DNA of 32,000 nucleotides from Candidatus Saccharimonadota bacterium (GTDB lineage: Bacteria; Patescibacteriota; Gracilibacteria; BD1-5; UBA6164): contig CP042461.1 of NCBI GenBank assembly GCA_004563595.2, positions 420,001 to 452,000 on the forward strand, read 5' to 3'. Position numbers and translations under genes: made by a program. Numbering within the stretch: position 1 is the first letter of the stretch; every line of letters starts with the position of its first letter. Shown here piece by piece: positions 3,090-32,000 of the stretch. Under the pieces are notes generated by a model, which saw only the letters and a program-made list of their open reading frames with translations, searched no databases and was not told the DNA's origin.

Positions 3090-3467
3090 ATGGCAAAAAA
3101 GGAGTTCGAAGAAATAGTATTGGAAAAACTATCAAGTTTTGAAAATTTTCAAGGAGTTGTGATTCAAAAACTAGATACTATTGAGACTGATGTATCTGAA
3201 CTAAAAACTGATGTATCGTGACTGAAGAAAGATGTATCTGGGCTAAAGTCAGATGTTTCGATATTGAAGCATAAAGTAGATGTAATTGATGATAGAACAT
3301 CAATTATGGGAAGACAAATTGAAGTGTTAGAAGGGAGGTCATCTGTCATGGACAGAAAAATTGATGGATTATATGATCAAAACATAGAGTTACAAGCCTC
3401 TATTGACCTTAATAGTAAATATATCAATCAATCATTTGAAAAGATTTCAGAGAATAATTTTAAATAG
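3090..3467 (+). CDS. Coiled-coil protein with heptad repeats (125 aa)
   Basis: ATG 3090 to TAG 3465-3467 with one internal TGA. Sequence MAKKEFEEIVLEKL..TDVSELK TDVSGLK KDVSGLK SDVSILK.. Confidence 0.75.
3186..3269 (+). repeat. Four tandem 21-nt (7-codon) repeats inside the coiled-coil gene
   Basis: Repeat units are actgatgtatctgaactaaaa / actgatgtatcgtgactgaag / aaagatgtatctgggctaaag / tcagatgtttcgatattgaag. TGA at 3219-3221 sits at the repeat position that is GGG (Gly) in the next unit. Confidence 0.85.
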
Positions 3468-12075: not shown

Positions 12076-12726
12076 CTACCAATGTTCTCAAAAAATGACG
12101 TTATATATAGTATATGGTCAATCATACGCTTCTAATATCCCTTCTCTATACTCTTTTTTTCTTTCTTCTGTAAAGGTCTCAAATTCTTCACACATATCCA
12201 TATGTACTTTTTCATGGTTTTTATATGGCATGGAATTTACTCATATTATATCAGTCTGGATATCACAAATATCTTTTGAAATATGCCTATATGATGCATC
12301 TTCTAAAAAAAATTTAATTTTTTCTATAATTATTTTCTGATTTTCAGATAATATTTGATCTCTAAATTGATCAATATAGTAATATTTAAATGGAACCGAA
12401 ACTATTATATTAAAAGGAGAGTCAATTTTATTGTCATCACTCCTGTAATCTATATGAAATGAATTTCAGTTATCCATATCAAAATTTCATGCCCATACTA
12501 AAAAATTCTCAACCTGTATTTTTTTCATTAATTCTTTTGTAATATTATCAAGAAAAGATATTTTTTTATCGTAATTATATGAATCAAGTTTTAATCTATT
12601 TAAGTTCTCTTTTTTTAATAAATAGATATCAAATATATCTTTAGGAATCTTAAGTTTCTCTTTTAATAAATCTTCATATAATTGTTCTTTTGTTTTCATA
12701 AATATAGGATTAATATATAGTTTCAT
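12076..12726 (-). CDS. Putative immunity protein, paralog A (216 aa from ATG 12726; 207 aa if it starts at ATG 12699)
   Basis: The track ORF 12487-12726 extends through TGA to TAG 12076-12078. The C-terminal ~50 aa (MPY..H.KVHMDMCEEFETFT.ERKKEYREGILEAYDGPYTIYNVIFGEHW) is near-identical to the gene at 13649-14281, while the N-terminal halves have diverged. Confidence 0.7.
12077..12232. repeat. ~155-nt near-identical repeat (partner 13650-13805)
   Basis: By-eye alignment shows about 10 mismatches. The repeat covers the 3' ends of the two immunity-like paralogs. Confidence 0.85.
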
Positions 12727-12826
12727 TTCATTTTTGAATATCTGTATATCCGTGCACTGATCAATCTTTTCTAATAATTATTCTCATAAAATCTGTATTA
12801 GTACCATTTTTATATATAATTTTCAT
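12710..12826 (-). pseudogene. Orphan toxin C-terminal tip (38 codons), homologous to the last ~35 aa of the 1102-aa protein
   Basis: MKIIYKNGTNTDFMRIIIRKDGSVHGYTDIQKGNETIY compares with ..IYAKNGTNTDFMRIIIRKDGSVHGYPDVINGTNDIVIY in the full-length gene. Nt 12746-12811 match 14323-14388 with 2 mismatches. Confidence 0.6.
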
Positions 12827-13648: not shown

Positions 13649-14281
13649 TTACCAATGTTCTCAGAAAATTACGTTATATATAGTATATGGTCAATCATAC
13701 GCTTCTAATATTCCTTCTCTATACTCTTTTTTTCTTTCCTGAGTAAAGGTCTCAAATTCTTCACACATATCCATATGTACTTTTACATGATCTTCATATG
13801 GCATACTATAACTTCATACTATGTCAGTAGGTATTTTCCATAATTCAAGGGGGAGAGTTTTATATAATTTTTCTTTTAAAAATGGAATGATTTTATTGAT
13901 GATTTCTAATATTTCTCATTCAACTTTTTCTTCTCTGACCTGTTCAATATAATAATATGGTACATCTAACGATACAGCTATATTAAAGGGGGAAAACTTT
14001 GTCATATCTTTAGAGTGGAATCAAATACTAAAAATATTAGATCAGAAGGTATTTGACCGTGATGCTCATAATGCATAATGAGGTTTATTTACTAATTTAA
14101 TTAATTCATCAGAGATTTTTTTAATAAATTTTTTATCCCTTTCAAAACTCTTTTTTGTTTCTTGAAAATAATCAATGTTTCCTTTCCTGCTTTTATATAT
14201 CTCTAATATTTCTTTTGGTAGTTTATCTTTATTCTCGAGGATTTTTTTTAAACATTCATCTCTATTCATAGTAGTGTTCAT
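13649..14281 (-). CDS. Putative cognate immunity protein, paralog B (210 aa)
   Basis: ATG 14281 overlaps the TAA of the upstream 1102-aa gene by 1 nt (TAATG). The track ORF 14066-14281 extends to TAA 13649-13651. It is a paralog of 12076-12726. Confidence 0.7.
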
Positions 14282-17200
14282 TAATAAATAACGATATCAT
14301 TAGTTCAGTTGATTACATCTGGATATCCGTGCACTGATCAATCTTTTCTAATGATTATTCTCATAAAGTCTGTATTAGTACCATTTTTTGCATATATTCA
14401 AACATCAGACAGTTTAACTAGAATCCCGTCAGATTTAGTTTTATTAATATCAAATACATCTTTAGGAACCTTGTCTAAAGCTATTTTATGTAAACCTATA
14501 ACTTCATCAGAGTTAGTTGTGTAAAAATAACTTTTTGGTTTGTTAGGTTTATCTTTTAATGCTTTTTCATAAAGAGGATTTCATTTAATATGCTCCTGTA
14601 CTTTAACTGCTCCTTGCAAAATCTTAAATTGAAATCAGTTTTTACTTTCAAATGTTAGAGTTTTTGAAAACTTATTTGCTTGCTTGAGCGTATTTAAGTC
14701 CTTTGAATCATCACTGACAAGTTTTTTACCTTTATTTAATTTTGATAAAGGAATGAGGTTCAGAGCTATATGAGTTTCTATATAACTTTTGTAGTATCAT
14801 TTATCATAATCAGAGTATCCATCAATAATTTCATCAATATTTTCTAATATTTCTATCCCATCTACTAAATATTCTGGTAGATTTGATAAGTTTAAGTTAA
14901 TATCGCTATTTATCAAGTTTGTCATTGCTTTTTTTACTGCTGATAGAAGCTCAGGGAGCATTGATGGGTCAATTATTTCAATCATTCCAACTATAAAATC
15001 ACCAATTGCTTTCTCAGTTCAATCAATTGATCATAGACCTGGACTATACACTCTTTTTAGCTCTTTTAATCATTCATCTGACTGCATGAGGCTGTATACT
15101 TGATCTATATCTGGTATGAGTTGTTTATATGTGTTATATTCATTATCATTTAAAAATCATGAATTATATATTTTTTCTAAGAAACTCGATGAATATACAC
15201 TTTTTCAAGTTAATGTTTCATAGTTTTCTCTGGTGTTATATCATACCAGTGTAAGATACTGTTGGATTGCTACTTGATAATTTAATGACACCTCTGTTAG
15301 ATTAGATAGGACTACTGTATCAAAATAATCAAAATCTCTTAACTTTTTTATTAATGAATCATTATCAATTGTTTCCTCTATTTGTTTATTATTTGCCTCT
15401 TTAATCAAAAATTCTCTCACTGCCTCTTCATGATCAGAATTATTTACTTCAATCCTATCCATTGTAGAAACAGTTGAGTAATCTGGAGCAACTTTAAATT
15501 CTATCCATACGAGCGCAGGGTAATCATTCCCAGTTCACTTTCTGTTGTATTTTGTATACACAGTAAAAGGGTACTCTTTGTATTCATTTGTACCATAAGC
15601 TCATCAACTTATATAATTTTTTATCTGGCCTTCATCATAACGAGTGCTTGATTCTAAGGTTTCTGTATCAACTCATTTTTTAGAAAGATAGGTATTGAGT
15701 CTTCCAAGAAACCCCTCGGGATTATATATTGTCGTAGCATCTAAATCATCATTTCCTTCATTTCCTCATAATATTGGAGTTTCATCTTCATCATCATTTA
15801 TGATAATAACATCTGGACTTTCAGAATCACCACCTCAAAAAATGATATCATCACTGGTATCCCATTTATCTTCCATCAGCGCTTGTTGCTCTGGAGTAAG
15901 CTGATTAAAGAAGTAAGCATCTCTTTCTAAATATCTTCTTACCGTAGCAGATCACCTATCTCATCTGGATGATCAGAGATTAAAGTTTATCCACACCCCA
16001 TCAGGTCTCAGATATCTTTGTTCTCATGTAAAATCTCTGTCCGAAAATTTTACGATTCATGTATCACGATAAAAACTATTGTTACTGGTATCTTGATATC
16101 TATTTTTGTATTGGTAGACTACAGTTATTCCATACACATTTGCTATTTTTGGCACCCAATATTCTTCTTTATTTTGATACCTACAACCATCATTTTTTAT
16201 ATATCAATTTAACCATACGGGCTTTACCGTATCTGATATCCAGTATTCTTTGAAAGTATCATCTTCTATATTTTCAATAATTTGAGACGAACAATAGAGT
16301 CTTTTTACATATAAGTTTTGTGTATTTACATTGTTTATAGTAATTACTAGGTCTTTGCTTCTTCAGTTTTCATAGGTAAGTGTGAGAACTATCTCTTGGG
16401 ACTCTCAATTATAACGTTCACTTGGCCTATATGCTAATATTCCTCAGTTCACTTCTAACGAAGAGTTATTTCAAGATTTGATTGTGGCTGTAATAGCTAA
16501 ATTATTTTCATTTTTTATAACTCATAAATCGTACCAATTTATTTCAAATTGATCTCATACTGGTCATTCTATCACCGTAGGGTATTCTACAGAAAAATTA
16601 CTCACTTCTATTGCTGTAGTATTTTCTGCTATATTTTCTTCATCGAGGTTTTGAGATGTATCTCAATTACTTTCAGGAGTATTTCACTCTGAGAGCGTAC
16701 TTGAATTAGTAAAAGTTTCTACTATGGAAACAGAACCATTTTTATATGTCTCTTTGATGTAAAGTGTTTCTCATTGATATATTGCTATTGAATCATCATT
16801 ATATAAAGCCCAATCTTCTCAGTTGTAACTGATATTTATATATCAATCAGTATCAGTTTTTGTTAATCTCAGATAGAGAGTACTATTTTCATATTTCCTA
16901 TCAACAATAATGATATTTGAATCTTGCTTGATAGTATCTATTGATTCAGTTACAAAAGAAACACTTCTATCAGTTATAATTGTAGAATCATTATTATCAC
17001 AGTTGTGTGCATCATTTATATTGATTTTTCAATCAGAGTTTGTATCTGATAATTTTAAACCATCGGTAAGTATCTCACTTATCTTTTTATTTATTAATTC
17101 AACATTAACTGAAGAATCTGAGTTGAGGTATAAGCCAAGATTCTCTCAATTTTTTCACAGAAGTATTTCTGTTACTTGGGTAGTACATAAATTAAGATGG

Positions 17201-18840: not shown

Positions 18841-18895
18841 TAATATCAATTAAAAACCCATTGAATAAAATTCAATGGGTTTTTAATTGATATTA
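18841..18895. terminator. Perfect ~26-bp inverted repeat (bidirectional terminator)
   Basis: taatatcaattaaaaacccattgaat (18841-18866) pairs with attcaatgggtttttaattgatatta (18870-18895). It sits between convergent genes, and the right arm contains the TAA of the pilin-LamG gene. Confidence 0.65.
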
Positions 18896-25102: not shown

Positions 25103-26077
25103 ATGAATTTTACACAAATCAAATTAGAAGAAATTTTAGAAGCAATGAAAAGTTTTGAAGATATTATAAAAACTACACCTTTGGAGTATAATAAATATTT
25201 ATCTCATAAATATAAATCAACTATTTATCTTAAAAGAGAAGATTTGCAAGTTACAGGATCTTTTAAAATAAGGGGGGTATTAAATTTTATTAACAATAAC
25301 AAACTGCATTGCATTGAAAGATGAGTAGTATGCGCCTCAGCATGAAATCATTCCCAATGAGTAGCTTTGATGTGTAGGAAATTTAAAATTTTTTGAGACA
25401 TTTTTTTACCTATAAATACTCCAAGTTATAAGGTTGATAAAACGATACAATATTGAGGAGATTTTATAAAGGTACATCAAGTAGGATCTGATTTCGACTT
25501 TTCTTATAATCAGGCTAAATGTTTTTCTCAAAATAATGAAAGTGTTTTTATTCATCCCTTTGATGATAGAGATATTATAGTTTGACAATCCACAGTATGA
25601 TACGAAATTTTTAGTGATACATCAATTACTGACAATATAGATTTTATAGTTTGTCCTATTTGATGAGGGTGATTAATCTCTTGAATTATAGAATCTGCTA
25701 AGCTTTTTTCTCAAAGTACTAGAATACTTTGATGTGAGCCTGAGTGAGCTTCTTCAATGAAAAAAAGTATAGAAGAATGAAAGGTTGTGAAATTAAATAA
25801 AATTGATGTATTTATTGATTGAGTTAGCGTCAAAGAAGTATGAAATTATAATTTCAATATTTGTAAAAATTATAATTTAAAAATAGAATTATCAAATTTG
25901 AACTCATTATTAAAAACGATTTTTGATATTTATGAAAAGACCAATATTTCAATGGAATTAGCCAGCGCAATGACGGTTGATATACTTAATAATATTTCAG
26001 ATAAAATAAAGTGAAAAACAATTGTGTTAATAATCTCATGATGAAATATTGATATGAATAAATTGTATTCTTTGTAG
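25103..26077 (+). CDS. Fold-type-II PLP enzyme, threonine/serine ammonia-lyase-like, without a regulatory ACT domain (324 aa)
   Basis: SFKIRG (PLP lysine), ASAGNHSQGVA and the CPIGGGGLISG tetraglycine loop (three of its four Gly are TGA; the third is GGG) are present. Confidence 0.85.
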
Positions 26078-26193
26078 TCCCTTATTTTTTTATATTGCTT
26101 AGTGTTTATGTATCATTAAGTTTTTCCTGATTATTAAAAAATAAGTGCAATTTAAATTTTGTTGGTTAGTTTTGACTCCCTTACTTTTACAAG

Positions 26194-26221
26194 TTGACAA
26201 AAATCAGTTTCTTTATAAAAT
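26194..26221 (+). promoter_or_regulatory. Candidate promoter of the thrS leader
   Basis: TTGACA (26194-26199), a 16-nt spacer, then TAAAAT (26216-26221). Confidence 0.45.
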
Positions 26222-26248
26222 ACTTTTATTAGTTTCTAATAAGGACAT

Positions 26249-26302
26249 ATGAGCCTCGCACAACTTGAAACCATAACAGGTACCACTCTTACTTTTCAGT
26301 AG
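26249..26302 (+). CDS. Candidate thrS leader peptide MSLAQLETITGTTLTFQ (17 aa, 5 Thr)
   Basis: AAGGA lies 3 nt upstream of ATG 26249. Thr codons are at 26270, 26276, 26282, 26285 and 26291. The TAG stop at 26300-26302 lies inside hairpin segment A. Confidence 0.5.
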   Translation: MSLAQLETITGTTLTFQ

Positions 26303-26366
26303 AGACTTTTTGTGTAAATAAAAATTTAAAAAACAAAAACTCTACTGATTCTAGTAGAGTTTTTTT
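26297..26366 (+). promoter_or_regulatory. Attenuator: competing antiterminator (A:B) and terminator (B:C) hairpins
   Basis: Segment A is cagtagag..ttttt (26297-26311), B is aaaaactctactg (26335-26347) and C is agtagagttttttt (26353-26366). B pairs perfectly with C (12 bp, followed by a T-run) or with A (8+5 bp with a 2-nt bulge). Confidence 0.55.
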
Positions 26367-26370
26367 AATT

Positions 26371-26475
26371 ACTCCCCCTGCCTTTCAGGCATCCCCCTCC
26401 ATGAGGGGGAACTAAGATTTTCATTGAATTAGATTCTCCCTCTTGGAGGGAGATGTCCTTTAGGACAGAGGGAGT
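26371..26475. repeat. GC-rich nested-palindrome element, copy 1 (105 nt, thrS 5' UTR)
   Basis: Two inverted ~48-nt units, each with sub-hairpins (gcct-ttc-aggc; ccccctc-cat-gaggggg; tctccctc-ttg-gagggaga; gtcct-tt-aggac). The element is closed by actccccctg/cagagggagt. The 10- and 23-nt cores are identical to copy 2. Confidence 0.85.
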
Positions 26476-26505
26476 TTACAACAATATATACTAAACAAAC
26501 AAAAA

Positions 26506-28269
26506 ATGAACATAGAAACAAAGAGGCATTCATTGGCTCATATCATGGCTCAAGCTGTAAAAGACTTATATCCAGATGTAAAAGTAGCAATAGGACCGGA
26601 TACTGATGATGGATTTTATTATGATTTTGATTTTGGAGAAGTAGAATTTTCTGATAAAGAATTAAAGAACGTAGAGAAAAAAATGAAAAAAATTGTTTCT
26701 CAAAATCAATTTTTTGAGCAATTTAACCTTCCCGTTGATGAAGCTATTTCAAAATTAGAATCTCAGGGTGAGGTATTTAAAGTGGAACTTGCTAAAAAAC
26801 TGAAATCAGAAGGGGAAACAGAGCTTTCTTTTTATAAAAATATTTCTCAACAATGAGATGAAAAATTTGTAGATATGTGCAGAGGTCCTCATGTATCAAA
26901 AATGAGTGAGCTCGATGCAAATTCATTTAAACTTGCAAGAGTAGCTGGAGCTTATTGGCTTGGGAATAGTGATAATGCACAACTCACAAGAATTTACGCA
27001 TACGCATTTAATGATAGAGCTGAGCTTGATGTACATCTTAAAATGCTTGAAGAAGCAAAAAAAAGAGATCATAGAATACTCTGAGCAAAGCTTAAGCTAT
27101 TTACTATTTCTGACCTTATTGGTCCAGGTCTTCCTCTTATGCAACCAGCAGGAATGGTAATAAGACAAGAAATTGAAGATTATTTATGGGAGTTACATAA
27201 AGGGAAAGGATATGATAGAGTATGGTCTCCTCATATTGCAAAAGAATCTTTGTATGAGACATCAGGTCATGCTGCAAAGTTCTGAGATGAATTATTTAAA
27301 GTTCAAGGGAAAGAAGATAAATTTATCTTAAAACCTATGAACTGTCCTCATCATATGCAAATTTTTGCTGATAATCAGTTTAGTTATAGAGATATGCCAG
27401 TCAGATATTTCGAACCTGCAACAGTATATAGAGATGAGAAATCAGGACAATTATCAGGTCTTACAAGAGTAAGGGCTATTACTCAAGATGATGGACATTT
27501 ATTCTGTAGAGTTGATCAAATCAAAGATGAGGTAAAATCAATTACTGATATCATTAAAGAATTTTATACAACTATTTGAATGACAGAGGATTATTGGGTA
27601 TCACTTTCAGTAAGAGGAGATGATAAATCTATCTATCTTTGAGGGGATGATGTATGGGAAAAAGCTGAAGCTGCATTAGAAGCTGCTTCAAAAGAAAATG
27701 ATCTTCCATACAAAAGAGTGGAATGAGAAGCTGCTTTTTATGGACCAAAATTAGACTTTATGTTCAAAGATGCTATTGGAAGAGAATGGCAACTAGCTAC
27801 TATTCAATGTGATTTCAATCTTCCTGAAAGATTTAATCTTGCATTTACAAACAAAGAGGGTGAAAAAGAAAGACCAGTAGTAATCCATAGAGCTATCTCT
27901 GGTTCATTAGAAAGAGGTATGGGAGTATTTATAGAACACTTTGCTGGTACTTTCCCATTATGGATGGCTCCAAGACAAGTAAAAATAGTTCCAGTTTCAG
28001 ATGTTTTCTTTGACTATGCTGAAAAAGTAGAAAAAGAACTTAAAAATGCATGAATCAGAGTGACTGCTGACTATGCTTCTGATGGACTCAATAAAAAAGT
28101 AAGAAATGCAGAAAAAATGCACAATAATTATATCTTAGTTCTCTGAGAGCAAGAAGAAACAAATAATTCTGTTTCAGTAAGAAACTATAAAACAAAAGAT
28201 CAAACAGTTGTAGGTTTAGAAGAGTTTAAAACTATGATTTTGGATGAGATTAAAGAGAGGAGGTTGTAG
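26506..28269 (+). CDS. thrS: Threonine--tRNA ligase lacking the N-terminal TGS domain (587 aa)
   Basis: Four track ORFs in one frame are joined by TGA. Motifs [11 protein letters not shown] (editing domain HxxxH), [21 protein letters not shown](TGA)[38 protein letters not shown] and [10 protein letters not shown] are present. Confidence 0.97.
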
Positions 28270-31468: not shown

Positions 31469-32000
31469 ATGATTTATGATGTTGTAATAGTTTGAGCATG
31501 AGCTGCTGGTTTATTTGCTTGAATAAGTCTTGATAAAAAATTAAAAAAAATAGTTTTAGAAAAAAATGAGAAGCCTTGAATAAAGGTTTTATTATCATGA
31601 TGAGAGAGGGCGAATGTTTCAAATATGGATATTGATCCAGAAAGGGACTATTTTACTCAAAACAAAAAATTTTTACTGAGTATATTTTCAAAGTATACAA
31701 ACTGGGATATTATGAGTTTTTTTTCTGAAAATTGAGTAAGTATAGTGGAGGAAGATAGATCGAGGTTGATTTTAGAAAGCTGAGATAGTAAAGAGTTGCT
31801 CGCTTGTTTATTGAAAAAGGTGAAAGAAAATAATTGTGATGTGAAGTGTGGGGATTGAGTGGAGAAGATAGAAAAAACTCCCCCTGTCCTAAAGGACATC
31901 CCCCTCCATGAGGGGGAACTTTGTTCTTACCCCCCTCATGGAGGGGGGATTAAGGGGGGAGTATTTACCATCACAACATCATCATGACAAAAATATCAAG
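31469..32000 (+). CDS. HI0933/BaiN-like FAD-dependent oxidoreductase (partial; runs off the window end)
   Basis: MIYDVVIVGAGAAGLFAG is a Rossmann GxGxxG motif with two TGA Gly. It continues ..IVLEKNEKPGIKVLLSGGERANVSN... The frame is open to nt 32000. Confidence 0.85.
31877..31963. repeat. GC-rich nested-palindrome element, copy 2 (87 nt, in frame inside the flavoprotein CDS)
   Basis: actccccctg-tcctaaaggac-atccccctccatgagggggaact, a spacer, then an inverted partial unit ccccctcatggaggggggattaaggggggagt. It translates as TPPVLKDIPLHEGELCSYPPHGGGIKGGV without a stop. Confidence 0.85.

Follow-up and report, generated by a model that had tools for sequence, protein, structure and literature searches.

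A nested-palindrome repeat family in Gracilibacteria with in-frame gene insertions and a possible DUF559 partner

Palindromic repeats that lie in frame inside protein-coding genes are textbook material for Rickettsia, and we know of no mobilising enzyme for elements of this kind. The Rickettsia palindromic elements (RPEs) are ~100–150 bp long, occupy intergenic space or lie in frame in unrelated housekeeping genes, and have no known transposase (PMC10969869). The REPINs, which belong with the repetitive extragenic palindromic (REP) sequences, are inverted doublets that occur together with solo remnants and tandem clusters, show compensatory changes, produce no target-site duplication (TSD), and can fold into either a hairpin or a clover (PMC3116915). 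Here we analyse a GC-rich nested palindrome of 105 nt at positions 26371–26475 of a 32,000-nt stretch of DNA (the window; mean GC content ~28%) from contig CP042461.1 of a Candidatus Saccharimonadota bacterium in the Gracilibacteria. The element is very probably selfish or mobile repeated DNA. The reading that we favour, with moderate confidence, is that of a dispersed selfish repeat, REPIN/RPE-like and non-autonomous, whose movement probably takes place with or through genes of the DUF559 family. It would be a selfish palindrome, RPE-like in its coding insertions, from a lineage new for such elements; it extends across phyla and has a candidate enzyme whose fold differs from that known for REPs.

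The likeness to RPEs is that both are palindromic repeats of ~100–150 bp in reduced, AT-rich genomes that lie between genes and, with unusual frequency, in frame in housekeeping genes, where they add a peptide segment to the product. The two differ in their hosts, those of the present family being Patescibacteria/Gracilibacteria (genetic code 25) together with Bacillota and others; in sequence and architecture, which here appear unrelated to those of RPEs, the element consisting of two inverted units with two hairpins each; and in that the present family spans phyla and is associated with DUF559 genes. The host being a code-25 genome of Gracilibacteria type, we do not assign the family to the RPEs. 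A second comparison is offered by the GC clusters of yeast mitochondria, which have reportedly been described by several groups, in one case from var1. These are GC-rich palindromes in an AT-rich genome, optional between strains and in some cases in frame in var1. Like the present family they are dispersed GC-rich palindromes of AT-rich genomes with some copies in frame in genes, but they are organellar and eukaryotic, only 30–50 bp in length, unrelated in sequence, and without a link to DUF559.

Architecture, covariation and spread of the element

Each unit of the element follows one plan, a 10-nt terminal arm followed by hairpin A with a variable stem and hairpin B with a conserved C5TC/GAG5 stem, for a total of ~41–48 nt. 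In copy 1 (26371–26475, no strand assigned), which is complete and intergenic, an AT-rich spacer separates the left unit from the inverted right unit. The left unit (26371–26413, plus strand) is built from the arm ACTCCCCCTG (26371–26380), hairpin A GCCTTTCAGGC (26380–26390), hairpin B CCCCCTCCATGAGGGGG (CCCCCTC-CAT-GAGGGGG, 26393–26409) and a tail AACT. Beyond the 17-nt spacer (26414–26430), the right unit (26431–26475, read on the minus strand as ACTCCCTCTG, GTCCTAAAGGAC, ATCTCCCTCCAAGAGGGAGAATCT) repeats the left modules in inverted form with specific C-to-T differences: hairpin B' (CTCCCTC-TTG-GAGGGAG, 26436–26452), hairpin A' GTCCTTTAGGAC (26455–26466) and the right arm CAGAGGGAGT (26466–26475), with arm and hairpin B both of the T-type variant. 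Copy 2 (31877–31962, no strand assigned) has a left unit (31877–31919), a spacer, and a shortened right unit that retains hairpin B' (31930–31948) and the right arm GGGGGGAGT (31954–31962).

The sequence-only reading had described the block as two inverted units with small hairpins, and on this the sequence, the folding scores and the covariance-model matches agree. Copy 1 has a predicted folding energy of -59.9 kcal/mol (z of -7.9 against shuffles) and copy 2 one of -60.8 kcal/mol (z of -5.9), and when the window is searched with a covariance model derived from other copies, the matches are precisely the four units of copies 1 and 2 and none further, the units of copy 1 scoring 46.3 and 45.9 bits. 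A 17-nt core, searched on both strands with up to 3 mismatches, matches seven times in the window against 0.00 expected from 100 shuffles, and chance is therefore no explanation for the repeat. The related copy that had been placed ~5.4 kb away at 31877–31963 is real; it ends at 31962, its right unit lacks hairpin A', and the identity that it was said to share with copy 1 over cores of 10 and 23 nt holds for the 10-nt arm and a core of 24 nt.

Selection on structure, suggested earlier from the paired differences between units, is borne out by covariation in both hairpins. At least four Watson–Crick pairs are possible in hairpin A in 75% of 212 distinct units but in 0.9% of shuffles; the number of different stems or 5' arms among these units is 49. 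When 46 units are aligned without gaps, 97.3% of cells are paired and 65 cells carry double changes, compared with 23 ± 4.8 in shuffles (none of 500 as high); sliding the register lowers the pairing to 47–71%. Hairpin B shows a compensated change from C-G to T-A, with CCCCCTC/GAGGGGG in 103 units and CTCCCTC/GAGGGAG in 57. Because this compensated pair is what distinguishes the left from the right hairpin B, it is the local hairpins that are conserved and not any pairing of a left unit with a right one.

Covariation alone does not distinguish DNA from RNA. Since copies are found in either orientation, within genes and as arrays, we infer that recognition acts at the level of DNA. Of the earlier suggestion that the element is either a selfish repeat or a structured RNA module, the first half stands; the second is opposed by the lack of an Rfam match, the two orientations, the genic copies and the tandem arrays. 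An excess of G-U over C-A intermediates (26 versus 3) was considered as a sign of strand-specific RNA and set aside, being equally explained by mutation bias. Conserved hairpins combined with short motifs are the signature of a protein that recognises folded single-stranded or cruciform DNA.

Relatives of the element exist elsewhere, so that neither of the two results named by the sequence-only reading as refuting it, a lack of relatives or a lack of covariation, came about. A genome scan with a 21-nt core returned eight loci from four Gracilibacteria metagenome-assembled genomes (MAGs), and the same loci hold further diverged copies, for instance four within 2.8 kb of L012. A metagenome scan for a pattern of arm, gap and hairpin B, which fixes these motifs in whatever it finds, returned at least 118 contigs with a GC content of 22–65%, some of them TGA-recoded and the majority of standard code, including one (L069) whose MutS2 is 100% identical to that of an Oscillospiraceae MAG. 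The 241 units found in all are mostly convergent left/right pairs, with solo units and tandem arrays in addition. A right unit of the form GCCTCCCTC-loop-GAGGGAGGTG-hairpin-CGGAGGGAGT recurs outside the positions fixed by the pattern, and the differences between left and right units, all of them C/T transitions, are consistent across loci: arm and hairpin B are of CCCCC type on the left and of CCTCC/CTCCC type on the right. The 39-mer of the left unit of copy 1 is found unchanged in four loci from other Gracilibacteria assemblies (L005, L041, L082, L137), and the genes that the window has in common with the related assemblies L090 and L011 are only 73–82% identical.

The family also appears to be undescribed, in keeping with the earlier failure to recognise it. 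Neither the element family nor a link between DUF559 and a repeat is mentioned in the literature that we searched, and Rfam has no family matching the element, a scan of 20 related loci yielding only a 6S RNA in L036. A phage or plasmid origin was considered and rejected, the pattern being absent from IMG/VR and represented in PLSDB by a single weak partial match, from Deinococcus.

Several loci show variants of the architecture. A locus of the alphaproteobacterium Mesorhizobium sp., of 65% GC (L008, 4160–4400), shares the architecture but differs a little in the arm, namely CCCCTCTCTG, hairpin GTCCTGCCGGAC, TCTCCCCCTCAAGGGGG, a spacer and then the inverse. On two Cloacimonadales chromosomes (L007, 5300–5460; L018, 2560–2690) there are tandem arrays with a period of ~47 nt, in which hairpin ATCCCCCTC-loop-GAGGGGGA is followed by the arm CAGGGGGTG, the same modules in another arrangement. 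Termite-gut contigs of GC 0.31–0.40 (L072, L094, L125 and similar) hold solo left units within an outer helix CCCGCCCGCC ... GGGGCGGG, which is either a palindrome inside a palindrome or a composite element.

Insertions within genes

Copy 2 lies in frame within a gene for an HI0933-like FAD flavoprotein (31469–32000, plus strand, code 25, running past the end of the window; Pfam PF03486, E 7.8e-30; aligned to PDB 2i0z), where it is translated as TPPVLKDIPLHEGELCSYPPHGGGIKGGV and forms an insert of ~29 residues. The orthologue from the related MAG L011, at 73% amino-acid identity, has an empty site, reading ...VKIIEK-KDD-FFEIET... against ...VEKIEK-[29 aa]-FTITTS... in the window. Among other orthologues, P0241 and P0245 carry different, shorter hairpin-derived inserts in this loop, and P0246 and P0247, likewise, have none. 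The L011 gene is itself an intact open reading frame (ORF) of 397 codons that holds two in-frame solo units elsewhere in its sequence; one of these sites is empty in P0247.

Such insertions are frequent in the recoded loci, where 13 of 28 copies are in frame inside long ORFs. The host genes identified there through Pfam encode PBP1A, an RNase HII-QueH fusion, radical SAM, FemAB, YaaA, TRCF and HI0933 proteins, with four copies in the PBP1A gene and two in the radical-SAM gene. Genic copies number no more than 15 of 92 in standard-code loci; in one clear example a unit interrupts the N6_Mtase domain of HsdM. The comparison with RPE-type repeats drawn by the sequence-only reading thus fits better than that reading could know, on account of the in-frame copy 2 and the 13 in-frame copies of the recoded loci. 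That reading had passed over the genic location of copy 2, the genetic code, the consistent asymmetry of left and right units and the link to DUF559. RPE-like in-frame insertion is now found in a lineage of the candidate phyla radiation with an altered genetic code, and with both empty and filled orthologous sites.

Recoding of TGA as the circumstance that enables insertion in frame was considered and rejected. The frame of copy 2 is free of TGA and stays open whichever of the two codes is used, and code 25 opens only one additional frame in copy 1. Because of this open frame, and because in-frame copies also occur in standard-code HsdM, recoding can play no more than a minor part. Copies would survive where they are harmless, either in intergenic leaders, as copy 1, or as in-frame surface loops of proteins, as copy 2.

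These distributions also bear on the idea that the element is a structure beneficial to the host, one that stabilises mRNA, terminates transcription, insulates or binds a protein and is maintained by selection for its cellular role. Many copies do lie in leaders or between genes, among them copy 1 and those ahead of adk and other genes, and where T-rich sequence follows hairpin B the combination is scored as terminator-like. We nevertheless consider such a function distinctly unlikely, given that copies have either orientation, form tandem arrays and interrupt no fewer than nine unrelated genes in frame, and that a site may hold an insert in one lineage and none at the orthologous place in another; an identical 39-mer among species whose genes are 73–82% identical is better fitted by spread or homogenisation.

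In annotations of Gracilibacteria, cyanobacteria and gut Firmicutes, the repeats give rise to false extensions of ORFs and to odd inserted peptides, and they are likely break points in MAG assemblies.

DUF559 genes and the mobility of the element

When the ORFs of the element-bearing loci are clustered, DUF559 is the sole recurrent neighbour that is not a housekeeping gene; the same clustering was used to look for a transposase enclosed by a left and a right end far apart, or for some other recurrent neighbour, and gave only housekeeping families besides DUF559. The DUF559 neighbours match PF04480 with E-values of 1e-25 to 1e-31 (87.7–107 bits against a cutoff of 20.6), resemble NCBIfam PRK09767, and have as closest solved structure the endonuclease-like 3hrl (E 5e-11). 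Among loci seeded by the element, DUF559 lies 0–80 nt from it in 11 loci, six of them independent, either upstream or downstream, and the DUF559 ORF often continues into the repeat. The converse search, seeded by DUF559, gives hairpin modules within 60 nt of the gene ends in all nine independent loci, four of which were picked regardless of ORF extensions; in two Gracilibacteria loci of this set (20 kb and 12 kb) the sole element is 22–28 nt upstream of DUF559. Hairpins of C-run and G-run type fall within 250 nt of DUF559 in 21 of 36 cases against 3.8 expected (p 4e-12). Annotated DUF559 ORFs carry extensions that are translated hairpins.

The geometry around the gene is recurrent as well. Direct repeats of the element stand on both sides of DUF559 in L090, L147, L151 and L152 (Nostoc), and in a Calothrix, a Bacteroidota, a Patescibacteria and one more locus a hairpin with a G-rich arm lies upstream of the gene and a C-rich arm with a hairpin downstream. 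The region upstream of thrS in L090 has the order repeat-DUF559-repeat, with each repeat of ~138 nt including the element, and at the corresponding place the window has a solo element. Stand-alone DUF559 proteins (P0001–P0120) are 60–70% identical among Gracilibacteria, Nostoc, Chloroflexi, Latescibacteria and Bacteroidota, an uncommon degree of identity between hosts so far apart, and therefore appear to have moved horizontally.

In four standard-code gut contigs (L055, L065, L089, L134) hsdM and hsdS of a type I restriction-modification operon are followed by a single element or two in tandem and then by DUF559. The element shares its first base with the stop codon of hsdS, and hsdM holds an in-frame solo unit, TPPVTKGDIPLKEGD.

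A specific small gene flanked by repeats is also the arrangement of REPINs and their REP-associated tyrosine transposase (RAYT), and because the geometry around DUF559 parallels that of REP-flanked RAYT genes, DUF559 is the best candidate for a partner enzyme. That it is the mobilising enzyme is a tentative proposal, drawn from this gene arrangement. Under such a scheme a protein would recognise the folded single-stranded or cruciform DNA of the units, and new copies would arise without a TSD and then decay to solo units. The partner would be a small gene for a DUF559 endonuclease (Vsr-fold, PD-(D/E)xK) elsewhere in the genome, lying between copies of the element, and orphan copies would be either elements mobilised in trans or the footprints of repeat-flanked DUF559 cassettes that collapsed by recombination. 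More speculatively still, DUF559 may act in a RAYT-like role in an undescribed mobile system that crosses phyla, moving horizontally with its flanking nested-palindrome repeats and seeding orphan copies, which would occupy intergenic DNA as well as protein loops and would be the origin of the recurrent 'PL.EG/PPHGGG' segments in Gracilibacteria proteins. If the parallel with RAYT is true, it would provide a function for DUF559 and a candidate enzyme for RPE-like elements. DUF559 is a small and very widespread gene, and its tie to a repeat makes both the movement of repeats without RAYT and a role for a stand-alone nuclease testable.

The mobility of the element is itself inferred, and several observations weigh against the part assigned to DUF559. 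No transposition intermediate, recent burst of identical copies or excision event was seen; DUF559 is near only ~6% of element loci, and the 32-kb window holds no DUF559 gene. Outside the Gracilibacteria and termite-gut set, the modules flanking DUF559 are CCCCCTT...AAGGGGG hairpins that match the window element in architecture without demonstrable sequence homology, and since the pattern-based scans fix their motifs, the conservation of motifs across hosts is partly ascertainment. DUF559 could target the repeats, as a homing-type gene would, or both could gather in permissive spots.

A more conventional alternative is that the element is a true REP/REPIN moved by a RAYT (an IS200/IS605-like Y1 transposase) encoded elsewhere, and that the adjacency of DUF559 is incidental. 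REP palindromes reportedly carry a GTAG-type tetranucleotide at their foot. The invariant columns of our alignment are C/T-run motifs (ACTCCC.C.G ... C.CCCTC ... GAGGG) with no GTAG. Other features do agree with the hallmarks of REPINs, namely inverted doublets, solo remnants, tandem clusters, compensatory changes, the absence of a TSD, and the choice between a long hairpin and a clover fold (PMC3116915). Unlike REPs, however, the family is not confined to extragenic space, about half of its copies in recoded genomes being genic, and its motifs recur across phyla where REPs are species-specific. A tblastn search with E. coli RayT of 930 kb of element-bearing loci gave no match at E<1, no Y1 transposase was present among the recurrent neighbours in the loci, and the place expected for a RAYT is occupied by a gene for a Vsr-fold DUF559 endonuclease instead of an HUH Y1 transposase. 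On this balance a RAYT is unlikely.

A miniature inverted-repeat transposable element (MITE) derived from a DDE transposon (e.g. IS630/Tc1-like) and moved in trans is another possibility suggested by the ends. The 10-nt terminal inverted arms ACTCCCYCTG ... CAGRGGGAGT are of the expected kind, and the termini ACTCCCTCTGTCC resemble the terminal inverted repeats (TIRs) of Stowaway-type elements. More generally, bacterial MITEs such as Correia/NEMIS, ERIC and Nezha are likewise small, non-coding, multi-copy and hairpin-forming, with terminal inverted arms and at times an intragenic position. They differ in having TSDs and a recognisable parent insertion sequence, neither of which was seen for the present family in the inspected loci: inspection by eye of the flanks of more than 100 copies revealed no TSD, of TA or any other sequence, and no conserved target; none of the left...right pairs in the loci encloses a transposase, and no long element with the same ends surrounds one. 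The internal hairpins are conserved and covarying, which recognition by TIRs alone does not require. We therefore regard a MITE as highly unlikely, and a Stowaway/Tc1-like origin in particular was rejected for the lack of a TA duplication, the likeness of the termini being real. As a separate observation, positions 26369–26477 give sub-threshold Rfam matches to the MITE-derived plant miRNA families MIR6224, MIR1120 and MIR1862, probably by convergence or chance.

The repeats on both sides of DUF559 allow yet another reading, in which circular DUF559 cassettes integrate at the palindromes, as at attC sites, by site-specific or homologous recombination, and orphan elements are unused sites. The order element-DUF559-element in L090, L147, L151 and L152 is what such integration would leave, as is the split of hairpins and G-rich or C-rich arms to either side of the gene in other loci. 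The elements also resemble attC sites in being imperfect palindromes of similar size (60–140 nt for attC) with structure partly conserved over sequence and fixed asymmetries that define the strand, and both adjoin small ORFs that look promoterless. The cores are nevertheless different, the termini being ACTCCC/GGGAGT in place of GTTRRRY/RYYYAAC, the motifs are strongly conserved, and no IntI or other integrase, recombinase or cassette array was found in the loci. The duplication in L090 includes locus-specific flanks of 13 and 31 nt, not expected from simple Campbell integration, and new insertions into genes are left unexplained. We give an attC-like site only a very remote chance.

The thrS leader and the host genome

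Copy 1 is in the 5' leader of thrS (26506–28269, plus strand), which encodes a threonyl-tRNA synthetase (ThrRS; PDB 1nyq, E 1e-147), and 30 nt separate its end from the ATG at 26506, where thrS does start. The upstream context (26194–26364, plus strand) consists of a near-consensus promoter-like site, TTGACA-16-TAAAAT (26194–26221, plus strand), and downstream of it a terminator-like hairpin with a T-run (26335–26364, plus strand), 6 nt beyond which copy 1 begins. An attenuator had been proposed for thrS at this place; the terminator-like hairpin is there, and a scan of 25900–26600 with Rfam gave no match to the T-box model even at E<=10. At gathering scores the whole window matches only tRNA-Met, with no match to the element. 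In the same leader, cagtagag (26298–26305) could pair with ctctactg (26340–26347), an attenuator-like alternative.

The position of copy 1 between the terminator-like hairpin and the thrS start raises the question of whether the element is a cis-regulatory structured RNA of this leader, as part of an attenuator, T-box or riboswitch, and the relative L090 likewise has copies upstream of thrS. In L090, however, the copies flank DUF559 and have the opposite orientation, no Rfam family matches, and the element is present as well in a coding gene of no relation to thrS, 5.4 kb away, and in hundreds of other settings that have nothing in common with it. The chance of such a leader RNA is close to negligible, the reading being effectively refuted by the distribution of the copies.

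The ThrRS of the window has no N-terminal TGS domain, its alignment beginning at residue 70 of the Staphylococcus aureus enzyme, and the L090 orthologue has the same start point. The gene also speaks for the genetic code of the host. ORFs under table 11 cover only 20% of the window, and reading TGA as sense restores a normal gene density; every gene of the window has TGA codons, and in thrS five of eight align with conserved glycines of the S. aureus ThrRS. The genome therefore uses code 25, in which TGA is read as glycine, and this points to Gracilibacteria or Absconditabacteria.

Other repeats of the window lie apart from the element. Two pairs of direct repeats, one of 179 nt (12077–12255 and 13650–13828) and one of 85 nt (12727–12811 and 14304–14388), with 89% identity and a spacing of ~1575 nt, appear to reflect tandem paralogous genes on the minus strand. 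A perfect inverted repeat of 26 nt with a 3-nt loop (18841–18895) lies between convergent genes and is probably a bidirectional terminator, and a small gene contains three to four tandem repeats of 21 nt, with a period of 7 codons, at 3184–3267.

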